Positions 47,306 to 63,801 of a DNA stretch of 64,000 nucleotides are shown here, in pieces (position 1 is the first letter of the stretch; each line of letters starts with the position of its first letter). The position numbers and the translations under genes are program-made. This DNA is from a virus (Duplodnaviria; Caudoviricetes), in the IMG/VR virus record IMGVR_UViG_3300021426_000006, positions 39,223 to 103,222 of that record. One strand, given 5' to 3'. Under the pieces are notes generated by a model. The model did no database searches. It saw nothing but the letters and a program-made list of their open reading frames with translations, and had not been told where the DNA came from.

Positions 47306-47803
47306 ATGAGAAAAGTAACAACTGTTCTGTGCAGTATAGCTTTCATGATTTCTGGAATCATGATGGCTATAACTGCCTCAGATCCGTCACCTGGTAACAG
47401 TTATAAAACTGTCAACGCAGCAACAATTCAACAGATGTATATTCCTACATTTCCAGAGTTGAAAGCTGACACAGGTAGGATCGATTTATCCGAGGATCTC
47501 TTGCGAGACCTCGCCAAGAAAAAAGGAGTTCTGGATACTGTCTATATCACCAAGACAGACACCATTAAAGAACAGGTAACTAAGGTGAAGTGGCGTAGGA
47601 ATCCTGCTCCTGCGTCAGTAGTAAAAAGAGACACCATCCAGGTGCCCGTTTACTATCTAGCAACACAGGTAGAGATAAAGGAAGACTCTATGGGTCAATG
47701 CATACCAGTTTACGAATTGCGCAAAGTAGATGAATTATGCACCGAAACAAAAACTTCCTCTGTAGAGGGCACCAACGAGTGTCACATTAAGGGAGACGAC
47801 TGA
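47306..47803 (+). CDS. secreted or membrane-anchored hypothetical protein
   Basis: N-terminal signal-like segment; DTVY/DTI low-complexity motifs. Confidence 0.75.
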   Translation: MRKVTTVLCSIAFMISGIMMAITASDPSPGNSYKTVNAATIQQMYIPTFPELKADTGRIDLSEDLLRDLAKKKGVLDTVYITKTDTIKEQVTKVKWRRNPAPASVVKRDTIQVPVYYLATQVEIKEDSMGQCIPVYELRKVDELCTETKTSSVEGTNECHIKGDD

Positions 47804-47819
47804 GCTTTGAGCTCGGTCT

Positions 47820-50120
47820 CCCTTAAAACAGGTAAGCACATTTCAGGTGGGTCTCATTAGCCCAGGTGCGAATAGTACAACTTGATCCGAGAATATGTTA
47901 GCCTTCTCAAAAGGTGAGAAACTCAAAAGGTAGGATGAAATGCTGTAAGTTCTATGCGTACTACATAGTAGAAAAGCTTATAGTAAGAGGGTAAAGTGCA
48001 TGTATCAAACCCTTCGATCCACGAGAACCGTCTGGAGGTGGAATAATCGTAAAAGGCACATAAGTCTCAAGAAGAGCAAAACTGAACCGTATCGATAGAT
48101 CTACATTCAAGGATACATAGAGGTAGAATAACGAAACACGAGTTGAAACCATCTATATGCTAATCGAGTAGAAGTAATTCTTACCTAAAAGAATTATTAC
48201 CGTGACAGCACATGGCATGACTGTCGGACTGGCAATCCTTTGCGGTATAACCGTAACGCAAAGCCAAAAATAGATGGGATGTATCAACACAATAGCTGTA
48301 GGATGGTGCTTCAAGAAATCCAAGTCTTGTGTAAGAGTCCGAAAAACTACAAAATGATAGCAAGATGATATGAAAATTAGCAACCTTTTGACAAAATACA
48401 TAATGATTAGTATTTGGGAAAGGGTCTGGGAATGAGGTGGATGCTGAATTATATCGTGAGGGGTATACTCACGAGGCGTACCGTAACTACGTCGCATTGA
48501 AGTCCTTGCCGTTCGATTCGAGGATATTTTCAAAAGAGCTTGTGAAAGTAAAGTGACCGCCAGGCCTTTGTCGTTCATGCGGTATATAAAAGTAGAATGA
48601 CCACCGGGGTAGGGCAGCCCCCGAGTTCCTGAGAAGGTTCTATTAAACTGGAGGATGCGCGAGTGAAGTCCGCGATGAAAGACTATTCTAAACACAAACA
48701 TGCTGGTAAGCGAGCAATGAGAGTGATAAATCAAATGTTAGCAAGAGAAAATGCTACTAACATTATAGTATGTCTGCTAGAAAGACAAAAAATCTTAATT
48801 GTGGATGCAATCACAATTTTGGTGGTCGATCGGAAGAGTATACACACCAGTATATTTGGATGTCGCTATCAATTTAAAGACGGATAATAGTTCGAAGGTT
48901 TGTCTGTAAGAACTTAGCTGCGTAGTCCCTAAGGTTGGATCTATATACTACGTGCGAACCCTTACTTTCAATTTAGATACTTCTTACAAAAATAAGTCGA
49001 TAATAAAATAGAGAGAATTAACATGTTTAACAAAAATTGATGTCCCCCGATAGCCGTAATAAAAGAAAAAAGTGTGGAAGACTTTAGCTCCCGTTGTATG
49101 GGAAGCAGGTGAGGTCGGGAAGTTCGAGTGCCAACCGTTTCTGAGAAGCAAATAGACAGAATACGAAACGAAACGAAATATAGACAGCAAATCTATATGG
49201 GTGGAAAGTATAAAGTTATATACATTGACGATGCAAGGCAGCTCTAATACAATCTCGAGGTTGTATGAATCCGTAGCCAATTAAACGCAGTGATTAATCG
49301 TATGCGGGTCGTAAGACGCCACGCCTCACTGTCTCTGAGGATTGTGGTAAGCAAGGAAGAGTGGGTGATAAATCTAAATGTATGAGGTGAAATTCCTCCA
49401 GTATTCGAGCACTATAAACAAATGAGGCAAGCACTTGCCAAAAGAAGAAAACAAGCCGTAGGGTCGACGCACTGACACGTCATAAGGACCGTTCGATAAA
49501 GAAACGCACTCCTCGCGTAAAACAATAGTTCTGGAGCTATTGAAACAGGAAACAAGCACGTTTTGTATGTAAGCTGTTAGGCTTGATAAATAATCAGAAA
49601 ACATACAAGTAGTAGATTCACTTTTGTTCGGAAAATACACTAGCGAAGATATTACAAAAATTTTGTGGGGTCCTACGAGCACTAGTTGCGTAAGCAAAAT
49701 TCTGCCAACGGACAAAAAGACACTGGGTTTAGTAAGAAATGAAAGTATTCAGTGCATATTGAAGTATAAATCAATATAAAATTACAATATGAAAGTACTT
49801 GAATGTACAACAACAAAGTTTGCAGTTTTACTTAAATTAGAAGAGTCTTCTGATGATGGGCACGGATGATCCTACCGTTGGATCCCCCTTAAACACTCGA
49901 GTAGGGTTTAAGTAGCCAGAATGAACACTAATGAAAGAAAACAAAAACATTCCTCTCGTAAGCACGGATAAATGATGCGAAAGAATATTCATACAATAAG
50001 ATTAGTTTACGTTGAGCCTTAGAGCCTGTAGACTTTATCTACAAAATGGTTCACCTTCCGCCACAGAAGTGAAGGACAGTAATTAATCTTATCGTTGGTG
50101 GATCAACCACGATATCAAAA
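47820..50120 (+). ncRNA. 2.3-kb ORF-free structured tract, candidate large ncRNA(s)
   Basis: Longest plus-strand track ORF is 74 aa; many short helices; A-rich linkers on plus; the strand is inferred. Confidence 0.55.
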
Positions 50121-50133
50121 AGGATAAGAAAAA

Positions 50134-50781
50134 ATGATCGACGTTAATGTAGAAAGCAAAATTTCTAAAAATTGCCAAATGATTAGTCAGTTTGGCTCTC
50201 GCCTCGGTACACAATTTTATAAGGCAGAAGGCCGTGAAGTATGGCAGGGCGGTAAAGACGGTTTTGAGAACGACAAGAAGGCCATTGCAAATGGTGAAAG
50301 TCAGGCGTTTATCCTGAATCGTTCTCCGCGTAAGTTCCTCGCAAAGAGTCATCGTATCACCGGTACTCAGATCGTAAAGGACGAAATCACCGGTGATGTA
50401 GTAGTTCTGGTAAATCCCGACGGAAAGGGAGGTTACGACTTGTGTCTCCCTATAACGAATGATTTGATTCGTGTAGGTGTCGTGACTCAGGAGGCTGTTG
50501 CCAAGGCTCTTAAGGGAGACGATAACAGCTTCTTCCTCAATGCAGACAATCTTGTTAAGATTCTGAATCATGCCAATGAGGCTGAAGTTCGTAACCTTAC
50601 GGAGCTTCGTGGCCGTATCGACAAGATGATTCAGAATATTCAGGCCGGTATTGCTGAGAACAAGCAGAAGGCTGAGCTCGCAAGCAAGGAGTGGACTGAC
50701 TCCGCAATCAGTCCAGATCTTAGCGATGTAATTAACCACACTGCCACCGGCGTGATTGTGACAAAGTCTTCTGAAGAGTAA
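50134..50781 (+). CDS. hypothetical protein (215 aa)
   Basis: Intact ORF with C-terminal coiled coil. Confidence 0.8.
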   Translation: MIDVNVESKISKNCQMISQFGSRLGTQFYKAEGREVWQGGKDGFENDKKAIANGESQAFILNRSPRKFLAKSHRITGTQIVKDEITGDVVVLVNPDGKGGYDLCLPITNDLIRVGVVTQEAVAKALKGDDNSFFLNADNLVKILNHANEAEVRNLTELRGRIDKMIQNIQAGIAENKQKAELASKEWTDSAISPDLSDVINHTATGVIVTKSSEE

Positions 50782-50783
50782 TC

Positions 50784-51383
50784 ATGAATACAAAGTCCCT
50801 TACTCCAAATTCAATCTCATTGATGCATTATTTAATGCAAAATGAGACGATAGCCAATAAAGTTAAGGCTGCTGGAAAAGAGGGCAAACAGTATGCAATT
50901 TATACGATTGAGGATGATGGAAGTATAATACTTGGCGAAACCAAACATAAGTTTTGGAATCAGCTCATAGGATGTAAATTTGTACTTACATTTGAATCAT
51001 TCGCTACTTGTGTATGGGATGCTCTTGTGGACTTAGCTACAGGTGGCAATCAGGAGGCTCTTCTCCAGGGCCTCAGTAAGGAAGTGTTAGAGAAAGCACA
51101 GCGTGAGAAGGAGTACAACTGGGTCGTTGAAAGATTGGTAGATTGTTTCCGTCATGTATGTAACAATAAAGGTGTCGAGTCGCGTTCCGAGGGACGCTCT
51201 GGGAAGTCTGGCCAGAAGATAGATACTGAAAGAGTTGTAGTACGTGACCGAAATAATTCGCCGGTCGAAATCAATGTTAATATTGGAAACAAACGACGCA
51301 CATTTAGCTTTCCTGACGCAACAGGACAAGCAGATCTTGTTTTAGAAATGGGAGTAGTTGGAGTAACTTGCGAACAGCACTAA
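50784..51383 (+). CDS. hypothetical protein (199 aa)
   Basis: Intact ORF. Confidence 0.8.
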   Translation: MNTKSLTPNSISLMHYLMQNETIANKVKAAGKEGKQYAIYTIEDDGSIILGETKHKFWNQLIGCKFVLTFESFATCVWDALVDLATGGNQEALLQGLSKEVLEKAQREKEYNWVVERLVDCFRHVCNNKGVESRSEGRSGKSGQKIDTERVVVRDRNNSPVEINVNIGNKRRTFSFPDATGQADLVLEMGVVGVTCEQH

Positions 51384-51570
51384 TCGGTTGTGATGCAACT
51401 TGTTTAGACTCCTGAGGGAAATCTAAACGCCTAGTGTTAATTCAATAGTGAAAAACAAAACTATTCTTTAACAAGAACTGTAAAAAAACAAATATATCCT
51501 ATATAGTTATCGAGGTAACTGGGGGGAGAGTTTCGAGGAACTCTCTCCCCGAGGATAATTCTTTAAGCCT

Positions 51571-51765
51571 ATGAAATTGAAAGAATACATCGAAATCCTT
51601 CAGACATTTGATCCAAATGTAGAAGTTCTGAAACAGGAGAAAAAGCAACATGGTCGTAAAATTCTAATTCCGTTAGAAAAACGCGACATTATTCCACCAC
51701 ATGTTCATTTTAAGTACAATAGTACTACAGGACATGAAACTCTCGTAGACTCATTTGTAGTCTAA
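51571..51765 (+). CDS. hypothetical protein (64 aa)
   Basis: MKLKEYIEILQTFDPN; follows the GC hairpin at 51521-51550. Confidence 0.65.
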   Translation: MKLKEYIEILQTFDPNVEVLKQEKKQHGRKILIPLEKRDIIPPHVHFKYNSTTGHETLVDSFVV

Positions 51766-51855
51766 ATTTACACGGGTGTGATTCCCATGTAAATTACTAG
51801 TAGGTATCTCGAATTCGCTTAAACTGAGTATTAACTAAAATCAAATGTTTTATAT

Positions 51856-52395
51856 ATGACAAAATCAATTAAGCTGAATTCAGGTAAAATCATCAACATT
51901 CGTAAGGATATTGATGCAAAGAAGAAAAAATACTGGAAGATCATTCGTACCACAAACTTGCTTTCTAAGAAAGAGGTATCGAATGGATTCCGTACCCATG
52001 ATCTGAAGACTCTCTATAATGAGATAACTCAGATGGCGGAGAAGCTTGTGCTTGTTAAAGGTATGCTGTTTTACCTTAATATGGGTATAACAACATTTGA
52101 CAAAGAGGCTTTTAAAAAGACAAACAACTATAGTATTTTTATGGCATGCGAGATGAAGGAGATTATTGCACAGTTGAAGATGGTGCCTACTCTTGATCCC
52201 AAGACTAAGTCTCAGAAAGGTCTAAAGGCTATTGGTAAGGATGAAGTGTTTACATCGGCAAAGATTGCTGCATTGATTAAAGATCTCCAGCTAAAGGCTA
52301 ATAAGTTTGATGCTGCAATGGAAAAGTTCAATAACGAAACAGAAATTGATATTACTTCTATTTCTGATGAGTTCAAGGAAGATCTCACAGCGTAA
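51856..52395 (+). CDS. hypothetical basic helical protein (179 aa)
   Basis: Intact ORF. Confidence 0.8.
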   Translation: MTKSIKLNSGKIINIRKDIDAKKKKYWKIIRTTNLLSKKEVSNGFRTHDLKTLYNEITQMAEKLVLVKGMLFYLNMGITTFDKEAFKKTNNYSIFMACEMKEIIAQLKMVPTLDPKTKSQKGLKAIGKDEVFTSAKIAALIKDLQLKANKFDAAMEKFNNETEIDITSISDEFKEDLTA

Positions 52396-52405
52396 AAATA
52401 GTATA

Positions 52406-52450
52406 GATCAGATATGTAGGTATGTACTAGGATCGTTCCCTAGCTGATCA
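52406..52450 (+). ncRNA. tRNA-like minihelix
   Basis: GATCAG/CTGATC stem stacked on CTAGG-ATCGTTC-CCTAG. Confidence 0.5.
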
Positions 52451-52594
52451 CATGAATAATTTCGAAAAATTCTGTAAAGAAAAAGTAGAAGAAGCGAGAC
52501 GTCGCTACTTCGAAGTTAGGCAAGCTGAAATGTTACTTGCATGGAAAAATCGCTTAAAGCGAAAGTAATTAACCACTCTAAAACCGTTATCAAA

Positions 52595-52975
52595 ATGGAA
52601 AAAGAAGAAAAGATCGTAAAGGTGTACTCAAACAATAGCAAAAAAGCACGCCTAAAGCGACGCAAAAATAAATTTCAACGTATTTGGGACGCTGAAAAGC
52701 AAACTTATGTGAAAGTACGTAAGGCAAAATACCCAGTCTACCCAAAGAAACAGAAGAAAGACTGGAGAGAAGTTGATAAATCTTCTTCGATAGAACGTCG
52801 CCGTAAGTCTACAAAAAAGATCAAGAGTGCACCGGTAATTGCAACTAAGCAAGAACCCGAAGTAAAACAGCAAGTTCGTAAAGAACCTGCACGCGTAAAA
52901 GCAACCACCGTAAGAATAAACGGTGTGAAGCATACGTGGGATAGTAAAACGTTGCGTTATAAAGTAGCAGCATAG
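52595..52975 (+). CDS. very basic protein ending KVAA
   Basis: Start placed at the TTATCAAAATG leader; ends TAG. Confidence 0.75.
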   Translation: MEKEEKIVKVYSNNSKKARLKRRKNKFQRIWDAEKQTYVKVRKAKYPVYPKKQKKDWREVDKSSSIERRRKSTKKIKSAPVIATKQEPEVKQQVRKEPARVKATTVRINGVKHTWDSKTLRYKVAA

Positions 52976-53000
52976 TATTAACTTTTAAATCATTATCAAA

Positions 53001-54005
53001 ATGACTAGTAAGACAAAACTCCTTAAGAAAGGAAAATATACACCAGGTACTGCCACACCTGCACCTGCAAAAAAGGCAGAGAATAACGTTGTTAAGAATA
53101 CAACAAGTACTAAAAATAAGCAACTCAGCCTTAGGAAACAAGCTGAGATACGCTCTCGTGCACGTCGCCAGCGTTCTATGTTGAAGCTTGGAATGAAACA
53201 AGAACTCATAGAAGAGATGTTTGCACAAGAAGACAACCGAATGGTACTTGTACTTTTGAATGGTGCATACACTATTCAAGATGGAACAAAGACTAAAACT
53301 GTGCGTAAGCGCGATGAACACCATAAGGTAGTGTCTGTAGAAACAGTAGAGGTTCCAAACATCTTGCGTGGTTATGAAGCTGCACGTAAGTATGTGGACG
53401 ATCAAAAGCTGCACTTTATGGCTGGACGTACAAATTCTATATGGATACTTAGCGATAAGTATCATGTAGATGACGTAGTAGAAAAACTTAGCATACTTGG
53501 TAGAGTTTCTGTCACAAAGCCGGAAAAGCATACTAATGAAACAGAAAGCGCTCGCCTGAAGAAGGAAAAGAAGACTCCCAAAAAGCCAACGAACAATACT
53601 GCAGAAGTAAAGGCGAAGGCAAAAACAGCACGTAAAGAGGCAAATGCGAACAAGATTAACATGCGCCCATATTATGCCGCTCTTCGTAAAGGTGGTGTGA
53701 GTGAAAGAATAAAGCGCCACAATCCGGATCTGGCCAAAAAGATAGAGGCATGGATAAAAGAAAGAAAAGCTGCAAGTGCGTCCAAAGAAGAAAAGTCGAA
53801 GGAAGTACGTGCTAAGCATAATCAATTAACTTCTTTCGAATCGAAAACAAACAAAAGAGCTCGCAAGGTGATTAAGCATTTAGCAAAAATAGAACGCCGT
53901 AGAGAGCTTGAAAAGAAGTGTGCGGAGAGTAATGCCAAAGAGCGTGCTAAACGCGCTCAGAAGGCTCAAAAACCAGTTCAAACGGAACTTAACATTGCTG
54001 CATAA
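53001..54005 (+). CDS. very basic protein (334 aa) ending NIAA
   Basis: K/R-rich intact ORF. Confidence 0.8.
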   Translation: MTSKTKLLKKGKYTPGTATPAPAKKAENNVVKNTTSTKNKQLSLRKQAEIRSRARRQRSMLKLGMKQELIEEMFAQEDNRMVLVLLNGAYTIQDGTKTKTVRKRDEHHKVVSVETVEVPNILRGYEAARKYVDDQKLHFMAGRTNSIWILSDKYHVDDVVEKLSILGRVSVTKPEKHTNETESARLKKEKKTPKKPTNNTAEVKAKAKTARKEANANKINMRPYYAALRKGGVSERIKRHNPDLAKKIEAWIKERKAASASKEEKSKEVRAKHNQLTSFESKTNKRARKVIKHLAKIERRRELEKKCAESNAKERAKRAQKAQKPVQTELNIAA

Positions 54006-54007
54006 CC

Positions 54008-54724
54008 ATGAAGAACCGTAGAGAACGAGCAAAAGAGGTGCGTAGAAGAAAAGTAGCGCAACTTGCAGCCTATAGTAGGCAATATACCGTTAAGAACTGT
54101 ACAGTTCCTAATATAGAAAGGCATGGTACAGGTGAATGGGATATTCCTGAAGAAGAATATCCGCAGCCTAAAACTCTTCGTAAAAAGTATAAGAAAAAGT
54201 ATTATAAAGATGATGGTACTATTCGTAAGATAGTAACTCATCCTTCCGATTATGATGCTTTTCCTGACCATACTTTTCATCCGAAAGGAAGGGCATGGTA
54301 TATGGAACAGATGGTACAGCATAAAATTGCTAAGTGGGAGAAAAAGAATCCGTGTCCAATCAAGCAAAATGATGGACAGCAGGATTTGTTTGAGCAAGAA
54401 TACTTAGTGCCGTGGAAGGCGGAGCGAGAGCTTGCAATAGAACGTATCAGAGATTTCGTCGTCTCTGTGTATGACAAATTACCGCTTACGGGGCGGTTCC
54501 AAAAATCCGAAAACAAGTTTGTAGAAGAAAATGTAGCCGTTATAAAAGATTTAGGAAACGAAGGTCATCATATAAATGACTTAGATTCTAAGAAATCAAA
54601 ACTGCTCAAAATAGCACAAAAGAAAACAAACGAAACAAAGATAAAACATAAGAATCTCATTTGTACTAATTTAAAAGACCACAAACGTCAAAAAGGTAGG
54701 ATACTCCTACCAAAAGCTGCATAA
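54008..54724 (+). CDS. basic protein (238 aa) ending PKAA, with internal QQDLF
   Basis: Intact ORF. Confidence 0.8.
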   Translation: MKNRRERAKEVRRRKVAQLAAYSRQYTVKNCTVPNIERHGTGEWDIPEEEYPQPKTLRKKYKKKYYKDDGTIRKIVTHPSDYDAFPDHTFHPKGRAWYMEQMVQHKIAKWEKKNPCPIKQNDGQQDLFEQEYLVPWKAERELAIERIRDFVVSVYDKLPLTGRFQKSENKFVEENVAVIKDLGNEGHHINDLDSKKSKLLKIAQKKTNETKIKHKNLICTNLKDHKRQKGRILLPKAA

Positions 54725-54731
54725 TGCAGCA

Positions 54732-54797
54732 GGGAATATGGTAATAGACATGCGACAAACAGCATAATCTATGCGAGGTTCGATTCCTCGCTTCCCA
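54732..54797 (+). ncRNA. tRNA-like element upstream of the polymerase
   Basis: GGGAA/TTCCC stem, CGAGG-TTCGATT-CCTCG T-arm, one irregular internal hairpin. Confidence 0.55.
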
Positions 54798-54825
54798 CTA
54801 GTATTAACTAAAGAACCTTAGAGTC

Positions 54826-56688
54826 ATGTGGATACGAAGCGACCGTGCAGTAGTGTACGATATAGAAGTCTTCCCAAACGTATTCCACGCAGTACTATAT
54901 GATACAGAACTCAAAACGCGTACTTGTATTGAGATTTCTGAAAGAAAAAACGACATTAGAGACTTGATCCAGTTGTTTACGGAAGGTGATAACAAAATAT
55001 TTGTTGGCTACAATAATCATCATTACGATGATGTTATCATCAACTATATCATTGATTTTAAAGATAAACTGACAGATCTGCCTTATTGGAGGATCTGTCA
55101 GTCACTTTTTAATCTTTCTTCGTACATTGTGAAAGACGAAGAGGGAAGCAGAGAACGGCTCAAAAGATGGAAATATGCACATTATTTCAAATCTATGGAC
55201 CTTCTTACAATGCAATTTAGTCAAAAGTTGCGCGTTGGATTAAAAACTATGCAGGTAACAATGCATTACAAAAACGTACAAGAGTATGATGGGGATTTCG
55301 ATCAAAATCTTCCATTAGATAAGATTGACGAAATGATTGCATACAATATAAATGATGTAGAATCGACTACTGAGCTTTTAAGCCGGTTGAAAGACCAAGT
55401 TGAACTACGTTTGTTTATAGAAAAAGAACACGGTATTGACTGTCTATCTATGGATAGTGTGAAAATGGCAGAGACCTTTCTACTCGAAAAATATTCGCAG
55501 AAGTCAGGTATTCCTAAAAATGTTATAAAGGAAATGAGATCTCCAATGGATTATATTCCGTTAAAAGATGTTATTTTGCCATTTATACAATACAAAAACC
55601 CAAAGTTACAAGACGTTCTTGAAGACATGAAGAAACAGATCGTGTATTCAAAAGAACGCAAAGGCTATGAGAATAAGTTTGTTATCTCAAATGTGGTATA
55701 TTCAGTTGGAGTTGGTGGAATCCATTCTATACATACTCCAAAAATATTCCGTCCAGGTGAAGACGAGTTCATAGGGCATGCGGATGTGGCGTCCATGTAC
55801 CCTTCTCTATTAATAGAGTACCAATGGGGTCCTCGACACTTGGGAAAATTATTTTGCGACCTATTTGCTGGGCTTAAAGCTGAGCGTTTGGAAGCAAAAC
55901 ATACAGGACAAAAAGTTAAGAATCTGTTTCTAAAGATCGTGCTTAACTCTCCTACAGGCAAGATGCAACAGGAGGTCAGTTGGATGTATGATCCGTTCAA
56001 CGTTTTTAAGATCAGAATAAACGGTCAACTGATTCTTTTAATGCTCGTAGACAGGCTTTTAGACTTAGGATGTGAAATCATTCAGGTCAACACAGATGGC
56101 GTTGTCTATAAGGCTAAAAACACGCTTAGAGAAAGAATTCAGGAAGCTATCTCTGAAGTGGAACGAATCACCCGACTTGAATTTGAGTCTGACGAGTATG
56201 AAGCATTCTATCAATACGCTATCAATGACTACTTTGGTGTCTTGAAAGGTGGAGAGATAGAAGAAAAAGGTATGTTTATAACCAAGACCAAGTTAGGCAA
56301 AGGTTTGGCTCCGGTAGTAATACCAAAAGCTATAATAGCATACTTTACACAGGGAACGCCCGTGACAGAATTTATTGAGAAGGATAAAGATATCCGTGAT
56401 TTCTTAATGTCACAAGCAGTAGATAAGAAATTTAAAGTTGTACATGGAGATAAACCTATACAACGTATCAATAGATTTTATGCAAGCACAAATGGTGAAT
56501 ATCTATTCAAGATCGATCCAGACGGTAATAGAGATAAAACCAATATGTTAACTAAATCAGGAGTAACAATCCTGAATAAGTTTGATGATCTCCCGATAGA
56601 AGATCGAAAGATTAACTATCGTTACTATATCAGTGAAGCCAAAAAAGTGATAGCGGACTTTACTGAACAACAGCTATCATTATTTTAG
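54826..56688 (+). CDS. polB: DNA polymerase, family B, with 3'-5' exonuclease domain
   Basis: ExoI YDIE, ExoII GYNNHHYD, ExoIII YNINDV; motifs DVASMYPS, KIVLNSPTGK, NTDG; C-terminal QLSLF. Confidence 0.93.
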   Translation: MWIRSDRAVVYDIEVFPNVFHAVLYDTELKTRTCIEISERKNDIRDLIQLFTEGDNKIFVGYNNHHYDDVIINYIIDFKDKLTDLPYWRICQSLFNLSSYIVKDEEGSRERLKRWKYAHYFKSMDLLTMQFSQKLRVGLKTMQVTMHYKNVQEYDGDFDQNLPLDKIDEMIAYNINDVESTTELLSRLKDQVELRLFIEKEHGIDCLSMDSVKMAETFLLEKYSQKSGIPKNVIKEMRSPMDYIPLKDVILPFIQYKNPKLQDVLEDMKKQIVYSKERKGYENKFVISNVVYSVGVGGIHSIHTPKIFRPGEDEFIGHADVASMYPSLLIEYQWGPRHLGKLFCDLFAGLKAERLEAKHTGQKVKNLFLKIVLNSPTGKMQQEVSWMYDPFNVFKIRINGQLILLMLVDRLLDLGCEIIQVNTDGVVYKAKNTLRERIQEAISEVERITRLEFESDEYEAFYQYAINDYFGVLKGGEIEEKGMFITKTKLGKGLAPVVIPKAIIAYFTQGTPVTEFIEKDKDIRDFLMSQAVDKKFKVVHGDKPIQRINRFYASTNGEYLFKIDPDGNRDKTNMLTKSGVTILNKFDDLPIEDRKINYRYYISEAKKVIADFTEQQLSLF

Positions 56689-56717
56689 TAACCACTTGAG
56701 AACCTAGAGTCAGTAAG

Positions 56718-57284
56718 ATGATTATTGAAGTAAACACAAAACTTCTGGATGCATTTCCAGATTTAAATTCAAATCAATTATTGTTCTTAAGTATTGTATT
56801 GGATAAGAATCAACCAAAATATCAAGACGTCCGCAAGATTGTCAGCCTAATCAGCGACGACGAAATACAATATTTAATCTCTCAACAGCTAGTTGCCTCG
56901 ATCGAGAGAGACAACTCAATAACATATCAACCAACGGATAAACTCAAAGTAGCAATAGCCCAGAGCAAAGATTATTTTGATATATTCTATGATATGTATC
57001 CAGTGTACGTGATGCGCGCAGATGGCTCTAAGAGTTATCTACGAGCCAATGTAAACAAATGTCGTCATTTCTTTAACACAAAGTGCGGAAGAAGTTCAGC
57101 TATGGCTGAACATATTATAAAATGCTTAGATTACGAAGTATCTAAACGGATGCGAGAAGGAAGTTTAAGCTATATGATGACTATGTGGAATTGGTTAACG
57201 CGAAGTCAGTGGGAAGCTGTTGAAGACGAGATGCAAGATACTAAAACACAGACAGTAAATTCCTATGGAACAGAACTTATCTAA
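56718..57284 (+). CDS. replication-associated protein (possible initiator or helicase loader)
   Basis: FDIFYDMYP...WLTRSQWE pattern; lies between pol and helicase. Confidence 0.55.
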   Translation: MIIEVNTKLLDAFPDLNSNQLLFLSIVLDKNQPKYQDVRKIVSLISDDEIQYLISQQLVASIERDNSITYQPTDKLKVAIAQSKDYFDIFYDMYPVYVMRADGSKSYLRANVNKCRHFFNTKCGRSSAMAEHIIKCLDYEVSKRMREGSLSYMMTMWNWLTRSQWEAVEDEMQDTKTQTVNSYGTELI

Positions 57285-58188
57285 TATACGTCCGATGAGC
57301 GTTGTCGCTCAAGAAGCTATAAATTATATAGCAGGACGAAGGGAACACAATATTGTATCCCTGAAAACTAGATGGGAAAAGTTCAATAGGCAGTGTATGG
57401 GAGGTATTGAACCAAATACCGTTTACACCATAGCTGGCATATCTGGAACAGGTAAGAGTAGTTGGGTAAACTGCTTAGTTACCGATATAATTGATTTGAA
57501 CCCAACTGAAGATATAGTTGTTTTAAATTTCTCTTTAGAGATGGTTGGATTTAGGCAAGTTGGAAGAACGCTTTCGAATAAACTTCGTAAAACAACTTCT
57601 ACCTTGTATAGTTCGGAAACGGACCTTGATGACGAAACCTTCAGAAAAGTCATTGCAGTATCTAATCAGCTAAAGGAGTACCCAATCTACTTTGTAGATA
57701 ATCCTGGGACACCTACGCAAGTAGAACAGACTATAAAAGATTTCTATAATCAGTATGTAAAAGATACTGGTAAACATTTTGTAATTGTGTATGACCATAC
57801 ATTATTAACAAAACAGGTAGGTTCTGTAATAGAAACTACAAGCGAACTTGAACGCGTATTTATACAAGCAAAAAAGTACCCGTTCACTTCGATTATACAG
57901 ATTGCACAAATGAATAGAAATATTGAATCTTCAGAAAGGATTAACAACCCATTGAGTCATTACCCAATGAGGAGTGATCTTTCCTCATCTGATGCGATGT
58001 TTCAAGCAAGTGATTACGTGCTTGTTATGCATAGACCAGAGATATTGAACATTCAGGAATATGGCCCAAACCGCTTACCTACTAACAACAAGGTGTATAT
58101 GCATATGCTAAAAAATAGAGATGCTGGAAAACCTTGTATACTTGAATTCGAGAATGACCTGATGTACAATAATCTGATCGAATGTTAA
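57265..58188 (+). CDS. dnaB: DnaB-like (SF4) replicative helicase
   Basis: Walker A AGISGTGKS, FSLEM, IVYDH, AQMNR, SDL, KNR. Confidence 0.9.
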   Translation: MEQNLSNIRPMSVVAQEAINYIAGRREHNIVSLKTRWEKFNRQCMGGIEPNTVYTIAGISGTGKSSWVNCLVTDIIDLNPTEDIVVLNFSLEMVGFRQVGRTLSNKLRKTTSTLYSSETDLDDETFRKVIAVSNQLKEYPIYFVDNPGTPTQVEQTIKDFYNQYVKDTGKHFVIVYDHTLLTKQVGSVIETTSELERVFIQAKKYPFTSIIQIAQMNRNIESSERINNPLSHYPMRSDLSSSDAMFQASDYVLVMHRPEILNIQEYGPNRLPTNNKVYMHMLKNRDAGKPCILEFENDLMYNNLIEC

Positions 58189-58229
58189 TGCTCAGATGAA
58201 AGTATTAACTAAAAACAAGGCTGAATAAC

Positions 58230-58730
58230 ATGATTACGACATATAACTTTTATAGTAAGGATAATAATAACAGTAGTATTTTTCTGGGCTCAACTAAGCC
58301 TACAAACTATTCTTCGATTCTCGATGACATTATTACTACTGATATAATTAATAAGAATTCGTATTTGTTCAATAATAAGAAGGACGACGATTATATTATT
58401 GATTCGTTGATAGGTAACGATCCTATCATCCTTACTGGTAGCACACTGAAGGTTAGTGATGAATTCACTAAGGCTGCTACCTTCCTTGCCAACTACAAGA
58501 AGTATAAGAAGACTTATAATCTTCCTTATATCATTGGTAAGATGTATACATTGTCAGATGGTACCCCCATTGTGTTCTACGATGATGAGGTGCAGATTGG
58601 TTTTGATACCTTCAAGTATACGAAGTTTGCTGATTTTTCGTTCTTGAACAGTCTGACAAAGAAGACAAAGAAGACCATCATCAACATTTATACTTTTGGT
58701 ATAGGTGATATTGAGATAAATCTTCTTTAA
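58230..58730 (+). CDS. hypothetical protein (166 aa)
   Basis: Intact ORF. Confidence 0.75.
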   Translation: MITTYNFYSKDNNNSSIFLGSTKPTNYSSILDDIITTDIINKNSYLFNNKKDDDYIIDSLIGNDPIILTGSTLKVSDEFTKAATFLANYKKYKKTYNLPYIIGKMYTLSDGTPIVFYDDEVQIGFDTFKYTKFADFSFLNSLTKKTKKTIINIYTFGIGDIEINLL

Positions 58731-58754
58731 TAAATCATAAGAACTATAAGTCAC

Positions 58755-59498
58755 ATGATAACACTACCTACACAAAAAGTTCCTGCAACTTCTACTAATC
58801 CCCAATATTTAGTAATTTATGGCTTGCCTAAATCAGGAAAGACCAGTGCTGTAGCACAATTAGAGAATAACCTTATTGTGGACCTCGAAGGCGGATCTAA
58901 GTTCATTGATGCTCTTGCTGTACAAGCTAGAACAATTAATGATCTTGGAGAAATTGCACAAGCCATACGAGCTAAGAACGAAGAAGTAGGGCATAATTTC
59001 TATAAGCACATTACAATAGACAACGCAACACGTCTTGAAGATATTTGCATGTCTTATGCTTGCACTTTATACAGGCAGACAGAGCTTGGCCGAAACTGGA
59101 AAGGAACAGACGTTACCACATTGGCCAGAGGAGCTGGATACAAGTATTTACGAGATGCCGTTAAAAAGGTCATTGATATGTTCAAAGACCTTTGCGACGA
59201 ATTTATTCTGATAGGACACGTTAAAGATTCTATTACAGATAAGGATGGACAAGAAGTCAACGCGAAAGAAATTGATCTCGTTGGAAAACTCGGAAGAATT
59301 ATATGCGGACTCGCAGATGCTGTCGGATACGTTTACCGAAAGGAAAATGAAACTCATATCTCGTTTAAAGGTGGCGATGGGGACTCAGTACTCGAAGCAA
59401 GAGCGAAACATCTTGCGGGAAGAGATATTATCATTTCTACGGGAAATGAAGACGGAACGATAACAACCTATTGGGATCGTGTTTATAAACCTGAATAA
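58755..59498 (+). CDS. AAA_24/Sak4-like NTPase (recombination)
   Basis: IYGLPKSGKT, VDLEGG, ITIDN, LIGH, ADAVGY; precedes the SSB. Confidence 0.85.
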   Translation: MITLPTQKVPATSTNPQYLVIYGLPKSGKTSAVAQLENNLIVDLEGGSKFIDALAVQARTINDLGEIAQAIRAKNEEVGHNFYKHITIDNATRLEDICMSYACTLYRQTELGRNWKGTDVTTLARGAGYKYLRDAVKKVIDMFKDLCDEFILIGHVKDSITDKDGQEVNAKEIDLVGKLGRIICGLADAVGYVYRKENETHISFKGGDGDSVLEARAKHLAGRDIIISTGNEDGTITTYWDRVYKPE

Positions 59499-59602
59499 AA
59501 ATGATCGAACTACAATGGATGCCTGGTACGTTTGTATCAGATAGAATATTATAGGAATTAAACAGAGAATTTTTAAGAACTATAAGTCAGAAGGAAGAAA
59601 TT

Positions 59603-60193
59603 ATGTATAGTACAAAAACAGCAACAACAAACAATACAGAGTTTAATAGCTCATATATGCCTGTAGGCATCAACGAAAATGTAACCTTGAAAGAGGTGAA
59701 CGTAAACAAGACACCGAACGGTCGTGACTTCTTGGAGATTATCTTTGAGAATGAACAGGGTCAAACGGCAACTATGACTGAGTGGAAGAACGAAAAGAAT
59801 ATGTGGATTAAAACCGATGAAGAACTTCAGAATCGGGATAATCAACAGTTCGGTCGTATTCTACAAGTGATAGATGCGTGCAATGGAGGACATAAAGATT
59901 TTGAAGGTTCTTCATTCGTAGAAATGATCAATTGGGTGAAGCAACAGCTAATAGCTGATCATACTCCTTTACGTCTTAAGGTTGTTTACGATAAGAAGGG
60001 TTATACGAAAGTAAGCTCTCTTGGTATTTTTGTTGAACCTATGAGTGTAGAACAGTCTCAGATTAAGCTTTGGAAGAATGATCTTCTGGAGCGTCCTATT
60101 GTGGCAGATGTTGAACCTGCTACAGATCCGCTCGGTGTAACAGCTGCTCCGGTAACTGAGACTTCAACAGGTGCTGACGACCTCCCTTTTTGA
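59603..60193 (+). CDS. ssb: single-stranded DNA-binding protein (crAss type)
   Basis: Follows the Sak4-like gene; acidic tail ADDLPF. Confidence 0.75.
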   Translation: MYSTKTATTNNTEFNSSYMPVGINENVTLKEVNVNKTPNGRDFLEIIFENEQGQTATMTEWKNEKNMWIKTDEELQNRDNQQFGRILQVIDACNGGHKDFEGSSFVEMINWVKQQLIADHTPLRLKVVYDKKGYTKVSSLGIFVEPMSVEQSQIKLWKNDLLERPIVADVEPATDPLGVTAAPVTETSTGADDLPF

Positions 60194-60334
60194 ATGATCC
60201 TGCAATAGCGGTATTGCAGGATTTTGATATTCTAAAAAATAATGGTCAGTTAAGTTAAAAAGTCAAACAAGATGGTGCTGACTACCGTGGGAAAAGGTCA
60301 GTGGTGGAGGCTAACTTCCGGTTAGCCCCAATTT

Positions 60335-60407
60335 GCGGTCTTAGTTCAGTTGGTAGAACGCTGGTCTCCAAAACCAGTAGTCGGGGGTTCGAATCCTTCA
60401 GATCGCG
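60335..60407 (+). tRNA. tRNA-Trp(CCA)
   Basis: GCGGTCT/AGATCGC acceptor; CTGGT-CT CCA AA-ACCAG. Confidence 0.92.
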
Positions 60408-60430
60408 CAATACAAAAGAGCTTATAAGCC

Positions 60431-61408
60431 ATGTATAGTACAAAAACAGCGATTACAATGAGTCTTAAAGACTTATTGGATAAGTTGGACGACTATACTA
60501 TCTATTCTTACTATCTTGGCGAATTTAAGCCAGGAAAGCTCATGAACAGCCCGTTGAGAAATAGCGACAAGATACCATCTTTTGCTATATTTCCAAGTAA
60601 AACTGGAGCATTGCTGTTCAAAGATCACGGAACTGGAGAAGCAGGAAACGCTTTGAAGTTCTTAAAAATGTATCGAGGGATACAGACCAGAGAAGAGCTC
60701 GAAAGAGAACTTCTAAAAATCATAAGAAGAACGAACCCAAATCTTGAAGTAAGAACAAACAATTACTCAAAACCTGTGGGTTCTGGTGTAAAAGATATAG
60801 GGATTGTTCGTCAGCCGTTCACAACAGTAGACAGACAATATTGGAAGCAATTCCATATCTCTATTGATACGTTGAAGAAATTCAATGTATTTAGCATTAA
60901 ACACTTTCTTTGTAATAGAGTCGTCAGAGGAACCTACAAAGAAGATAATCCTATGTATGCCTATAAGGTCTATGACAGGTTTAAGATTTATAGACCTTTA
61001 GCCTCAAAGTATACTAAATGGCGTACCAATCTGACAAATCGGTATGTTCAGGGGTTAGCCGAATTGCCACAAGAGGGTGGTAATCTCCTCATCATAACAA
61101 AATCCTTAAAGGATGTGATGTGTCTTTATGAGATGGGGTTTAGTGCTATAGCAGCTTCGAGTGAAACTACGTTTATACCCGAAGATATACTTCAGTCGCT
61201 AAGAAAAAAGTGGAAGCATGTTGTTATAATATACGATCGAGATAAAACGGGAATGAAAACAGCTCGAGAGTATAGTAAACAATATAAAATAGATGCTATA
61301 TTCGTTCACAAAAAGTTTAAAGCAAAGGACATATCTGATGCTGTTCGAGATAACGGGTTCTTTGCTGTAAAAGAATGGTTAACTAAAACAGTAGAAAGAT
61401 ATGTTTGA
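60431..61408 (+). CDS. dnaG: DnaG-like DNA primase (TOPRIM)
   Basis: SPLR..DKIPSF, FKDHG, IITKSLKDVM, YDRDKTG, KDISD. Confidence 0.88.
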   Translation: MYSTKTAITMSLKDLLDKLDDYTIYSYYLGEFKPGKLMNSPLRNSDKIPSFAIFPSKTGALLFKDHGTGEAGNALKFLKMYRGIQTREELERELLKIIRRTNPNLEVRTNNYSKPVGSGVKDIGIVRQPFTTVDRQYWKQFHISIDTLKKFNVFSIKHFLCNRVVRGTYKEDNPMYAYKVYDRFKIYRPLASKYTKWRTNLTNRYVQGLAELPQEGGNLLIITKSLKDVMCLYEMGFSAIAASSETTFIPEDILQSLRKKWKHVVIIYDRDKTGMKTAREYSKQYKIDAIFVHKKFKAKDISDAVRDNGFFAVKEWLTKTVERYV

Positions 61409-61604
61409 AATAATTGCAGGTGCCTTTTTAGGCGGTATATCTGGAGTTGCAGTAGGTCTCTGGCTTACAGTTAAAGCATTTAAAGAGACATGTAAAAATC
61501 TTCAGGTGGATCCAATTGGTTTTGTTATTTATAAAACCAAGAAAGAAAAGTCAGAGACTAAGAAAATCGATAAAAGTACCGTAACATTCGTCTATGACAA
61601 CTAA
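61401..61604 (+). CDS. small single-TM protein
   Basis: Hydrophobic N-terminus. Confidence 0.6.
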   Translation: MFEIIAGAFLGGISGVAVGLWLTVKAFKETCKNLQVDPIGFVIYKTKKEKSETKKIDKSTVTFVYDN

Positions 61605-61983
61605 AGGTAGGGTCAAGAATGCGACAGCAGTCGATGCGTATGGACTCCATTTTAGGAGTAAACTCGAACTCTATACGTATGAAGCTTTTATGAAAGCAGG
61701 AATTCCTGTTAAATATGAGCCAAAGCATTTTACTCTACTCAAATCGTTCGAATTTTTAGGTCAAAAAATAAGACCTATTACATATCTACCAGACTTCGTA
61801 GGACGAGGTTTTATAGTAGAATGTAAAGGTCTTATGGGAGACTCATTTCCTTTACGTTGGAAGCTTTTCAAATATTATTTGTATAAGCATCACGCAAAGA
61901 TAAAACTATATCTTGTGAGAAATCATAAAGATGTAGATAACATGATCCAAGAACTTTTAAGTCAGAGAAAACATGGAAAATAA
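61594..61983 (+). CDS. PD-(D/E)XK endonuclease (T7 endonuclease I/resolvase-like)
   Basis: FRSKLE...YEP...YLPDF...VECKG. Confidence 0.85.
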   Translation: MTTKGRVKNATAVDAYGLHFRSKLELYTYEAFMKAGIPVKYEPKHFTLLKSFEFLGQKIRPITYLPDFVGRGFIVECKGLMGDSFPLRWKLFKYYLYKHHAKIKLYLVRNHKDVDNMIQELLSQRKHGK

Positions 61984-62743
61984 TAACGCGCAGTTTGTCA
62001 ATTATAACGGACACATACTTCCGAAGCCAGAAGGAACAGATTATAATCTCACACCCAATAAGGTATACACCATGAAACAAGACAAATATGGTGATAGTGT
62101 ATACTTAGAGGAAGATAAAGATTTTGAGTTTCCATCTACTTATTATGAAGAAGATCCAAAGTTTATAAATAAATGTATAACTACGTTTAATAATACCGAA
62201 AAACTTACAACAGGTGTTCTATTAAGTGGTTTGAAAGGATCTGGTAAAACATTGATGGCAAAGAAAATTGCAGTCGAGTCAGGTTTACCTATTATAGTAG
62301 TAGATAAAGATGTTTCTGCTGGTTGTATTGAGCTGTTCTTTTCAAGAATTTTTACTCCTGTGTGTGTTATATTTGACGAAATTGACAAATACTGGAATAC
62401 ACGTTATCTTCTTGGATTCCTTGATGGTGTAAAACCTACAGGAAAGAAGCTTGTTATCTGTACTTGTAACGATGAGGACGAGATTGATGAGTATCTCAAC
62501 GATCGTTGTTCTCGTATTCGTTATAAGAAAACATTTAACAGTCTTAACGTTAATGTAATCGAAAATGTAATTTGCAGTATAATTGGCGATAAAAATAAAG
62601 CCAAGGATGCTGCAGCATACATACACGACGCATTAGAAGTGGCATCTTATGACAATGTCATAGTGTTTGCAGAGGAGTTGAAAAACTACCCCGATGAATC
62701 ATTTAAAGATATTGTTAAAGACCTTAACGTTGAAAAGAAGTGA
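61973..62743 (+). CDS. AAA+ ATPase
   Basis: GLKGSGKT, IFDEIDK, TCN, DRCSR. Confidence 0.88.
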   Translation: MENNNAQFVNYNGHILPKPEGTDYNLTPNKVYTMKQDKYGDSVYLEEDKDFEFPSTYYEEDPKFINKCITTFNNTEKLTTGVLLSGLKGSGKTLMAKKIAVESGLPIIVVDKDVSAGCIELFFSRIFTPVCVIFDEIDKYWNTRYLLGFLDGVKPTGKKLVICTCNDEDEIDEYLNDRCSRIRYKKTFNSLNVNVIENVICSIIGDKNKAKDAAAYIHDALEVASYDNVIVFAEELKNYPDESFKDIVKDLNVEKK

Positions 62744-63801
62744 TGGATATTTCCATACCATACTACGAGGACCACACACGTGTGAGTAACTCGTCTATAG
62801 GCTGGTTCTTAAACAAAGGGCCAGCCTATTTTTATAAGATGCTTAAAGGAGAAATCGAAGGAGAGAAATCTACTGCGATGGATCGTGGATCTATGATTCA
62901 CGAATACATTCTCCAGCCCGAAGAGTTCCAAAAAGACTATGTAGTATGGAACAAAAGTAGACCTACTTCTGCACAACAGGAGAAGTTCTGTCAGGCATTA
63001 GCATTTTCAACAGAAATAGAGCCAAATAGAGCCATTCTGGACGCCTATAAACAGGCGTATAGCACAGCAGGAAAGTCGGATGACAAAATGCTGTCAGAGG
63101 GCCTTAAAATAGCCTCTACATTGAAGGATTACATAGACTTCCTGAAAGCAAATGATGGAAGGATTATGATTAGTCCTTGGGATGTTAAAATGCTTGAGAA
63201 AATTAAGCATAACATCCAATCCCATAAGCTTGCTAGCAAAATAATATGGTTTGTTGGATATGGAGAATACCCAGCAGATTCACCAATAATGCCAGGAGAT
63301 GAAATGGCGCTTTGGCACGAATTTCATATAAACTGGGAGTGGGAAATGTTACTTGAACGTTCTGGAGATTCAAATCCTCCAGAATTACTTCAAGTGGCAT
63401 GCAAGTCTCTATTAGATGGTCTTACTCTTGATTTTAAGAATAAGAAAGCTATCATATACGACTTAAAGACTACACAAAAGTTGTGGCATTTTGAGGATAG
63501 TATAGAGATGTACGATTATTGTAGGCAGCTTGCGTATTATACAATGGCTGTAAAATGGTATCTCAAAAACGAATGCAACGAAAATATAAACGATTGGGCA
63601 TTCGAATATTATATCATTGGAATCGATACTACTGGATCGTATGAAATACGTGTATTCCGTATTGAAGAGTTCATGGTGCAAAGCCGCAACTATGTCATAC
63701 AGGATGTGTTGATGGATATTGCTTGGCACCAAGCAAATAGTAAGTGGGATCATAGTAGAGAATATTATGAAGGTAATGGCTCAGAGTCATTGAACCTATG
63801 A
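62740..63801 (+). CDS. PD-(D/E)XK exonuclease (RecE/Cas4-like)
   Basis: SNSSI, GSMIH, KSLLD, DLKTT, QLAYY. Confidence 0.85.
   Translation: MMDISIPYYEDHTRVSNSSIGWFLNKGPAYFYKMLKGEIEGEKSTAMDRGSMIHEYILQPEEFQKDYVVWNKSRPTSAQQEKFCQALAFSTEIEPNRAILDAYKQAYSTAGKSDDKMLSEGLKIASTLKDYIDFLKANDGRIMISPWDVKMLEKIKHNIQSHKLASKIIWFVGYGEYPADSPIMPGDEMALWHEFHINWEWEMLLERSGDSNPPELLQVACKSLLDGLTLDFKNKKAIIYDLKTTQKLWHFEDSIEMYDYCRQLAYYTMAVKWYLKNECNENINDWAFEYYIIGIDTTGSYEIRVFRIEEFMVQSRNYVIQDVLMDIAWHQANSKWDHSREYYEGNGSESLNL

Follow-up and report, generated by a model that had tools for sequence, protein, structure and literature searches.

The operators of phages MS2 and PP7 are weak hairpins with an unpaired stem base at the start of a replication gene, and they become repressive once a dimeric protein binds. 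In phage T4, replication genes are controlled post-transcriptionally at their initiation regions, and RegA is one regulator that serves many genes. Phage N4 carries strand-specific hairpins upstream of its early genes and injects its own RNA polymerase. Here we describe a strand-specific element, predicted to pair as a dyad-symmetric mini-hairpin, that recurs at the start codons of replication genes in IMG/VR virus record IMGVR_UViG_3300021426_000006, a complete genome of 103,222 base pairs (bp) with direct terminal repeats. The window, that is, the whole stretch of 64,000 nucleotides (nt) that was analyzed, comprises bases 39223-103222 of this genome, and positions are those of the window unless marked as genome positions.

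The replication module shows 68-74% nucleotide identity to members of the Crassvirales (Suoliviridae, Oafivirinae: cr272_1, cr273_1, cr131_1, cr124_1). Crassvirales rank among the most abundant phages of the mammalian gut, and to our knowledge almost nothing is known about the timing of their gene expression. The gene names given in a preliminary description of this DNA stand: polB by homology to annotated relatives, and also the DnaB-like helicase, the Sak4-like ATPase, which matches Pfam AAA_24, and the AAA ATPase. SSB corresponds to PHROG 378, the exonuclease gene was likewise identified, and the module also encodes a DUF1064 (Holliday-junction-resolvase-like) protein. A study of phage phi14:2 found no signal common to the upstream regions of early or replication genes (10.1101/2020.03.07.982082), and we found no earlier description of the present element in the literature. 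Operators that act post-transcriptionally on phage replication genes are of a known kind. What is new is the element itself, with its symmetric geometry and its array, and the fact that it occurs in Crassvirales.

Comparisons were made with 80 related viral contigs (orthologous upstream regions), which together with this genome amount to 1.06 megabases (Mb). Whole-genome copy lists cover seven complete genomes and the array search nine, and every statistic given here is drawn from related genomes.

The Element at Replication-Gene Starts

GARCY-N2-4-RAGYCA has 10 matches on the + strand of the complete 103,222-bp genome and none on the - strand or in a reversed control. The motif is thus far commoner than in simulated sequence: a first-order Markov model predicts 0.77 matches per strand, and 60 simulations gave at most 3. 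The six copies first reported at the starts of polB, the loader, Sak4, SSB, primase and the AAA ATPase all lie where the preliminary description placed them. The other four + strand matches are three members of an array (42412-42775) and one copy at 45212; two further copies, at 42669 (the fourth of the array) and 50014, fall short of the pattern by the final A alone. A supposedly weaker copy at 63792 is present, as GAGTC-ATT-GAACC, and is not weak but a full member, since it meets all of the pairing rules of the motif and was missed only by the regular expression first used. The copies at gene starts are these:

54813-54826, + strand: polB copy, GAACC-TTA-GAGTC-A, whose last A is that of the ATG
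56700-56712, + strand: loader copy, GAACC-TA-GAGTC(A), 5 nt before the ATG (56718) of a gene for a ScpB-like loader or replisome organiser
58741-58753, + strand: Sak4 copy, GAACT-ATA-AGTC(A), 1 nt before the ATG of the Sak4-like ATPase (58755)
59577-59589, + strand: SSB copy, GAACT-ATA-AGTC(A), 13 nt before the SSB ATG (59603)
60418-60431, + strand: primase copy, GAGCT-TAT-AAGCC-A, whose last A is that of the ATG
61951-61964, + strand: AAA ATPase copy, GAACT-TTT-AAGTC-A, 8 nt before the ATG (61973)
63784-63796, + strand: gene 63798 copy, GAGTC-ATT-GAACC, 1 nt before the ATG (63798)

A purine-rich AAGGAAG word lies between the SSB motif and the SSB ATG, and the primase motif starts 9 nt downstream of tRNA-Trp (60335-60408). 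Two copies are located within the 3′ ends of upstream open reading frames (ORFs): that of the AAA gene in ORF 61594-61983, where it overlaps conserved codons for QELLSQ, and that of gene 63798, kept in at least 12 relatives, in the exonuclease gene. Inside polB, at 55372-55384 (+), GAGCT-TTT-AAGCC obeys the pairing rule and is followed by G; this copy may be accidental.

The earlier proposal of one strand-specific element at the initiation sites of replication genes, conserved across related phages, is borne out, and five relatives carry complementary-type matches on the strand of the replication module. Replication-module loci fall into three groups. GA-type loci, this genome included, hold 5-9 copies per 20 kilobases (kb), genomes of GT or GC type hold 3-4, and the third group has none in the replication module. 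No such element was found at the same genes of cr6_1 and cr56_1, which belong to two other Suoliviridae subfamilies. Where the motif is absent, polB and the loader gene are separated by about 1 nt; the motif lineage has a 29-nt insert that carries the hairpin. The element marks the replication regulon of one subfamily-level clade, the Oafivirinae-like phages of rumen, pig and primate gut.

A Paired Core

The motif had been pictured as single-stranded sequence displayed in a loop. This view is wrong, because the two halves of the motif are complementary and would pair with each other, and a loop on a stem is ruled out as the only structure. The core is predicted to be a dyad-symmetric mini-hairpin, 5′-G N R Y Y-(2-4 nt loop)-R N R Y C A. 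R3 and Y4 pair with a Y and an R of the second half in a 2-bp central helix, the partner of Y5 is the R that opens the 3′ half, and one base per strand (the N positions, both A in this genome) is unpaired. G1 and the last C may close the helix; a tally of this outer pair did not rise above background, and it is no longer taken as proven. A K-turn was also rejected, its register being without covariation support.

In orthologous upstream regions, bases 3-4 of one half invariably match the reverse complement of bases 3-4 of the other. The cores of polB orthologues read GAACC..GAGTC, GAGCC..GAGCC, GAGTT..AAACC, GAGTC..GAACC, GAACT..AAGTC, GTATC..GTATC and GCATC..GCATC, and those of primase orthologues GAGCT..AAGCC, GAACT..AAGTC, GAGTT..AAACC, GAGCC..GAGCC and GTACT..ATGTC. 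The pairing was also examined with a pattern that does not demand complementarity, GA[AG][CT][CT]N2-4[AG]A[AG][CT]C, over the 1.06 Mb. Its four complementary classes gave 141, 49, 51 and 71 matches on the + strand versus 13, 8, 2 and 21 on the - strand; the twelve non-complementary classes totaled 137 versus 95. Base 5 and its partner are C-G in 144 cases, T-A in 137, C.A in 20 and T.G in 11. Within 25 nt of an ORF start, all three pairs are complementary in 117 of 141 distinct contexts, where about one-eighth would be expected, and on the - strand, as a control, in none of 13. This result supports pairing and not readout of a duplex sequence. Duplex readout also fails to explain the coexistence of three pairing classes in this one genome (AC/GT, GC/GC and GT/AC), which indicates that the element is read as a structure. 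Sequence constraints are needed as well, since a purely structural search for any 5-mer pair obeying the pairing rules returned 440 matches per strand, compared with 422 in shuffled sequence.

Of 312 matches, 195 are followed by A. The base next to the motif is the A of an ATG in 66 cases, and an ATG follows 1-3 nt later in 52; the rest are up to 25 nt away. The motif ends at or within 3 nt of the start codon in 118 of 218 placed cases.

Lower Stems at the Start Codons

The preliminary description also proposed a stem of different sequence around each copy, with the AUG in or beside its 3′ side. Such a start-codon stem has comparative support at polB, the loader (in some lineages), Sak4, primase and gene 63798, but not in the forms proposed for SSB and the AAA gene. 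Three of the stems are placed as follows:

54802-54809 / 54828-54835, + strand: possible polB lower stem, pairing across the motif
58734-58738 (ATCAT) / 58755-58759 (ATGAT), + strand: Sak4 lower stem
60410-60414 (ATACA) / 60432-60436 (TGTAT), + strand: primase lower stem

Among relatives the polB lower stem takes the forms TATTAAC/GTTGATA, TAATC/GATTA and TTTTTATTT/AAATAAAAA. At Sak4, CCAT/ATGG replaces ATCAT/ATGAT where the second codon changes; a U-A pair becomes C-G in three sequences, and U.G is found opposite the G of AUG in four orthologues. In the polB alignment 75.7% of cells are paired (core 87%, lower stem 69%) versus 26-40% with slid partners, and in the Sak4 alignment 88.7% versus 19-50%, although the structures were derived from the first sequence of each alignment, so that part of this excess is expected. 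Covariation scores of both alignments lie above those of shuffles: 0.156 versus 0.114 for polB, a value reached by 4 of 500 shuffles, and 0.190 versus 0.121 for Sak4, reached by none of 500.

Primase orthologues keep a constant 3′ arm, ATGTATAGT, and have ATACA, TATACA, ACAT, ACTAT or ACTATA as the 5′ arm, each complementary in a shifted register. In some relatives the loader motif and its ATG are enclosed by a stem of 10-11 bp, TTAGTAATTA / TGATTATTGA. Gene 63798 has the lower stem GCTCA/TGAGC (minimum free energy (MFE) -8.4, z = -1.14), and its relatives pair GCTCA, GCTCG or GCTC with TGAGC, TGAGT or GAGC. The stem CATG/CATG first drawn at the AAA gene is not conserved; in another lineage the AAA gene has GAACC-AAAA-GAGTC with a 7-bp stem, CATTATT/AATAATG, that holds the ATG. 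Comparative support is likewise absent for the SSB stem AATTT/AAATT. The SSB window has an MFE of 0 (z = +1.37), and the best flank stems are of 1-2 bp in most orthologues.

The start codon thus falls within the 3′ arm at Sak4, primase, polB, the loader, gene 63798 and, in that other lineage, the AAA gene, and the lower stems run 5-10 nt beyond the ATG. Relative to controls, stems lengthen more when G.U is allowed than when A.C is allowed; a tally of mismatch types in the lower stems comprised too few cases for use. The free hairpins at gene starts are weak, between 0 and -5 kcal/mol.

Arrays and the Unpaired Bases

Copies of the element also lie in DNA that is free of, or poor in, ORFs:

42412-42775, + strand: hairpin array of four GAGCC-TT-GAGCC (42412, 42581, 42669, 42763) in an ORF-free tract, each with its own lower stem
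50014-50026, + strand: single copy, GAGCC-TTA-GAGCC, on a strong stem (MFE -9.1, z = -2.0)

The copy at 50014 is located at the end of a 2.3-kb ORF-poor tract, 120 nt before gene 50134. The array, with spacings of 88-170 bp, lies in an RNA-gene island adjoining a permuted transfer-messenger RNA (tmRNA) and tRNA genes. Orthologous arrays occur in L095, G001, G002, G003, G004, G005, G006, G008 and G009, and all nine complete genomes searched carry 3-5 hairpins in non-coding DNA. The array cores sit above a small internal loop on lower stems of 5-8 bp, whose sequences are unrelated and co-varying (GTAAGAT/ATCTTAC versus GGGGAT/ATCCCC); core types vary too. Flank stems average 5.1 bp in the arrays versus 3.6 for re-paired flanks, and at -7 to -10 kcal/mol these hairpins are stronger than those at gene starts. 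The array is probably the more widespread and older part of the system.

As a separate observation, a 37-kb viral contig holds a tandem (GAGCCTT)n of at least 15 units (L092:12561-12680), which amounts to overlapping GAGCC-TT-GAGCC and could code on the opposite strand.

Each genome has a single kind of unpaired base in the core, the same in either half and in every copy. The two bases are A/A in G000, G001, G003, G005 and G006; T/T in G008, in G009 (four array copies, polB and primase) and at the Sak4 start of cr124_1; and C/C in L088. The replication proteins of G006 and G008 are 79-96% identical, yet the bulge state differs between these two genomes. Because the unpaired bases switch together genome-wide, a single co-evolving reader is suggested, and the sequences thereby lend support to the single trans-acting regulator that had been proposed. 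Such a reader would probably be a dimer with two equivalent pockets. The A/A, T/T and C/C states offer natural specificity variants for finding it.

A Putative RNA Operator Regulon

The best explanation, which we hold tentatively, is that the copies make up an RNA operator regulon with a multi-site RNA and one phage-encoded trans-acting factor. The element would act in the transcript, in agreement with its orientation and its position at start codons, with flanks that pair with the start region, with the operon context and with the occurrence of copies inside upstream ORFs. The core hairpin would be recognized by one phage-encoded factor, probably a homodimer, most likely on RNA. At seven replication or recombination genes the core lies 0-13 nt before the AUG, and at the majority of them a weak lower stem would put the AUG into its 3′ arm. 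Unbound, the hairpin seems too weak to stop ribosomes; the bound factor would clamp it, hide the AUG and block initiation. Transcripts of the array tract would form a multi-site RNA to which this factor also binds, and this RNA would be its decoy or its primary partner. The logic of this mechanism would be that of the MS2 coat-protein/replicase operator and, at the level of the regulon, that of T4 RegA. We infer action on RNA, a protein reader and translational repression, all three. As for the earlier idea of one translational regulator of the replisome, the shared element and the signs of a single reader favor it, and the array-only genomes and a copy inside a sigma-factor gene widen the role.

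Several observations weigh against such a regulon. The variable stems first proposed are all present in the sequence, but the six starts fold no better than shuffles: with dinucleotide shuffles of 43-nt windows, z = +1.04, +0.40, -0.86, +1.37, -1.01 and +0.53. SSB is without a lower stem in any lineage, and its motif lies 10-15 nt upstream with an AAGGA word between. Flank pairing averages 4.11 bp versus 3.23 (standard deviation 0.10) for re-paired flanks, a statistic that is inflated by related sequences. The core has no excess of G.U over A.C, and so no RNA signature there. Among the seven whole-genome copy lists, G006 and G008 have the array but no gene-start copy, which indicates that control of replication genes is not the array's only or original role. 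No RNA-binding family was recognized in 40 + strand ORFs searched with Pfam, 20 of them also with PHROGs. Finally, the coincidence of the last A with the A of ATG fits a transcript 5′ end equally well.

Other searches for the reader gave few leads. A six-frame scan of the whole phage genome returned no candidate for CsrA (PF02599), for which control genomes matched, and to this extent the earlier statement that no CsrA is present holds. The matching statement on RegA (PF01818) is upheld in part: Translat_reg was absent from the 40 + strand ORFs and from a whole-genome scan, but the control set gave no match in that scan either. Nor did the genome match bS21 (PF01165), for which the controls, Bacteroides included, did match. 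PDB sequence searches with four conserved neighbors, two Atlas look-ups, and a profile of synteny and identity around the arrays yielded no reader candidate. An Rfam cmscan of 31000-64000 (E <= 1) placed nothing at the motif copies or the array, its only matches being tRNAs, tmRNA-type matches (the permuted tmRNA above cut-off) and two weak - strand matches. A screen for G008 ORFs closer to G009 than to G006 was noisy and yielded no candidate; late genes seem to be fragmented by table-11 stops. ORF 41722-42369 has no relatives among the viral contigs. The 180-residue ORF 40494-41036 (+) keeps a syntenic position upstream of the array in the relatives compared, with only about 27-36% identity even where genomes are otherwise close (27% between G006 and G008), and no fold or family was found for it. 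It may serve as a lead for the reader of the motif and is not presented as a finding.

Alternative Roles

A transcription-start element or an RNase site fits most of the same facts. In the first case, the hairpin or its 13 nt would be a promoter for the virion RNA polymerase or for a phage-modified host polymerase. With starts at the conserved A, the mRNAs of polB, primase and, in many cases, Sak4 would have no leader, and other mRNAs a short one. The array would serve as a cluster of tandem promoters that drives the tmRNA/tRNA island and the sigma-factor operon downstream, much as T7 has three early promoters in tandem. Such a promoter is unlikely on balance, but it accounts well for the strict orientation of the motif with transcription, for a conserved C-A step that is commonest exactly at the ATG (66 at distance 0, 52 at 1-3), for the A after the motif in 195/312 cases, and for the arrays in every genome, as would be seen with an essential early promoter set.

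The sigma factor in question and the copy within its gene are placed as follows:

44716-45273, + strand: gene for a sigma factor of the extracytoplasmic function (ECF) type; Sigma70_r2 34.0 bits (cut-off 24), Sigma70_r4_2 32.5 bits (cut-off 25.7)
45212-45225, + strand: intragenic copy, GAACT-ATT-AAGTC-A, encoding sigma-4 residues GTIKS

The claim that copies lie at initiation sites therefore holds for the replication genes but not for this copy, which is conserved in relatives within the sigma gene and away from the start codon. The motif-forming GTIKS codons are found in G000, G001, G003 and G005, the four genomes with gene-start copies, and other synonymous codons in G006, G008 and G009. Because the motif codons are confined to genomes with gene-start copies, the copy is probably functional though not at a start, and as a promoter it could serve the next gene. 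Sigma orthologues of 49-60% identity occur in all five of the other complete relatives queried, including genomes without gene-start motifs, which counts against a promoter; the gene may provide context for a promoter reading, its link to the element being putative only. ECF sigma promoters have about 16-17 nt between a GAAC-like -35 box and a CGTC/GTC-like -10 box. A promoter of this type is excluded by the spacing of the halves, 2-4 nt, and the variants GAGCC..GAGCC and GTATC..GTATC contain neither box.

Promoters of any kind meet further difficulties. The stems run 5-10 nt past the ATG, so that a start at the last base of the motif would fall inside the hairpin; in N4, transcription begins downstream of the hairpin foot. 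Duplex DNA is unlikely to extrude so short and bulged a core (2-4 bp). In relatives that lack the motif the same genes are tightly coupled in one operon, so six internal promoters are not needed. About 25 early-looking + strand ORFs upstream (31317-42369) have no copy, and a separate set of GC-rich GNA-loop hairpins is found at genome 37.4-37.56 kb. The host-type Bacteroides promoter words TTTG..TAnnTTTG form no pattern in the module. A search of sequencing runs matched at most 0.22 of the sampled words and returned assembled contigs. Four metatranscriptome contig sets were compared with 42200-62190, and nothing is concluded from depth or from contig breaks near motifs, as assembled contigs cannot show the starts, ends, strand or level of RNA.

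More specifically, the hairpin could be the promoter of a crAss-type virion RNA polymerase, read single-stranded by analogy with N4, whose virion polymerase uses DNA hairpin promoters. The arrays would then be tandem early promoters, the gene-start copies would give leaderless replication mRNAs in one lineage, and the A/A, T/T and C/C switches would reflect co-evolution with the polymerase. This is a doubtful proposition, although one supported by the fact that the virion polymerase of phi14:2 transcribes single-stranded or denatured DNA and that crAss-like phages have no known early promoter motif (10.1101/2020.03.07.982082). A direct-repeat search of the early non-coding region of phi14:2 revealed no comparable repeated hairpin.

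The element might instead be an endoribonuclease signal, a symmetric bulge-helix-bulge hairpin beside which a structure-specific RNase of phage or host cuts. Cleavage would mature RNAs of the non-coding island and trim or decapitate replication mRNAs, in the manner of T7 RNase III sites, T4 RegB or Cas6/Csy4. Dimeric nucleases read substrates of this type, in which two bulges sit symmetrically on a dyad-symmetric helix. Copies are found at cistron boundaries, and those of primase and polB come immediately after tRNA or tRNA-like elements; others are inside ORFs (the sigma gene, 61594 and the exonuclease gene), where a translation operator would have no obvious use. The arrays are beside tmRNA and tRNAs in an RNA-gene island, and array-only genomes such as G006 and G008 would be expected if RNA maturation were the primary role. 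What makes this reading improbable is that no nuclease of matching specificity was recognized among the + strand ORFs scanned, that the helix is far shorter than RNase III substrates, and that the geometry does not match the 3-4-3 of the archaeal bulge-helix-bulge.

It is very unlikely that the element is a signal in single-stranded or cruciform DNA, such as an origin, a primosome-assembly hairpin or the site of a structure-specific DNA enzyme, with its gene-start position secondary. Core pairing is strictly Watson-Crick with no excess of G.U, repeated non-coding hairpins resemble an origin with repeated sites, and all copies are within or beside the replication module. A DNA signal leaves unexplained, however, why the motif ends at or within 3 nt of start codons (118/218), why its flanks pair with the start-codon region and why it shares the direction of transcription, and the array spacings of 88-170 bp are unlike those of the iteron origins known to us.

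That the copies are chance or coding by-products without shared function is scarcely credible: some coincide with conserved codons (those for GTIKS in the sigma gene and for QELLSQ upstream of the AAA gene) and the one at 55372 inside polB may be accidental, but the counts exclude it (10 copies versus 0.77 expected, 0 on the other strand), 117/141 matches near starts are fully complementary, the motif is kept with compensatory changes across genera, and motif-forming synonymous codons occur only in motif-bearing lineages.

Whether it proves to be an RNase signal, a promoter for an injected polymerase or an operator accompanied by a multi-site RNA, the element would be the first of its kind for this phage order.

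Neighboring Features

Between the hairpin array and tRNA-Gln lies one further RNA gene:

43144-43410, + strand: circularly permuted tmRNA, Rfam RF04321, 61.7 bits versus a gathering score of 47

ARAGORN gives its tag peptide as DNNNVVDYTGLKEAA. A tRNA gene or a tRNA-like T-arm (GGTTCGAxTCC) precedes polB and primase in every Suoliviridae genome examined, including L009, L010, L140 and L141; the tRNA-like element before polB in this genome (54740-54800, +) received no call from ARAGORN or Rfam.

The SSB and primase ORFs open with the same 20 nt, ATGTATAGTACAAAAACAGC (MYSTKTA; 59603-59622 and 60431-60450, +), here and in nearly all relatives. Other subfamilies share N-terminal words of their own, MTYS/MYS in cr6_1 and MIY/MIY in cr56_1, which suggests that the starts of these unrelated genes evolve in concert.

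Signals of a second class also lie upstream of genes: AGTATTAAC(T) is found 17-26 nt before five ATGs (45723, 51827, 52974, 54800 and 58201; +), and TTATCAAAATG forms the start context of five genes (40484, 41714, 45742, 52587 and 52993; +). These may be promoter or initiation-context elements. A related arrangement in phi14:2 reads ATTAAC..AACTAAAGAA..ATG. Another word, AAGGCTGA (58210-58229, +), lies 1-6 nt before the ATG of a 166-residue ORF between the helicase and Sak4 and is conserved across three subfamilies (L009:6454, L010:6445, L011:5296, L140:5844, L141:5619). About 1.7 kb before the window, at genome 37400-37560, GC-rich hairpins GCGAGCGTAGCGAGT and CTCGCGAAGCGAG are repeated between TATATA runs. 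They are a different set and could be origin or polymerase signals.

Comparison with Known Systems

The core recalls the bulge-helix-bulge splice motif of archaea and eukaryotes in having two dyad-related bulges on opposite strands of a short helix. The canonical motif has a 3-nt bulge, a 4-bp helix and a 3-nt bulge, in contrast to the 1-2-1 arrangement seen here, and no splicing endonuclease was detected by Pfam among the 40 + strand ORFs scanned. The promoters of the N4 virion RNA polymerase are similarly short, strand-specific hairpins, and the crAss polymerase prefers single-stranded templates. N4 promoters, however, have an uninterrupted stem of 5-7 bp with a 3-nt loop, whereas the present element has a bulged core of 2-4 bp and a stem that continues into the ORF.

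In its overall arrangement the element resembles CsrA/RsmA with CsrB/RsmZ, where a short motif at the initiation regions of targets is also present in many copies on a non-coding RNA; here that RNA is a candidate. CsrA recognizes a hairpin-loop triplet in A(N)GGA that overlaps the ribosome-binding site, whereas the phage motif is paired and symmetric and has no conserved GGA. Unlike the CsrA-CsrB pair, two phage lineages have the array without targets.

The T4 RegA regulon provides a precedent for one regulator at many replication-gene starts, the regulator being putative in the present case. RegA sites are AU-rich and unstructured, and the polymerase itself binds the gp43 operator of T4, a lone hairpin. 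Multi-copy RNA arrays are absent from the RegA, gp43 and gp32 systems. The likeness to the MS2 and PP7 operators lies in the unpaired bases of the core and in the placement of the AUG in or beside the 3′ arm. In MS2 a single asymmetric site, with one bulged A and a 4-nt loop, is read by the capsid protein in an RNA genome; here at least seven dyad-symmetric sites, each with two bulges, are accompanied by an array in a 103-kb double-stranded DNA phage.

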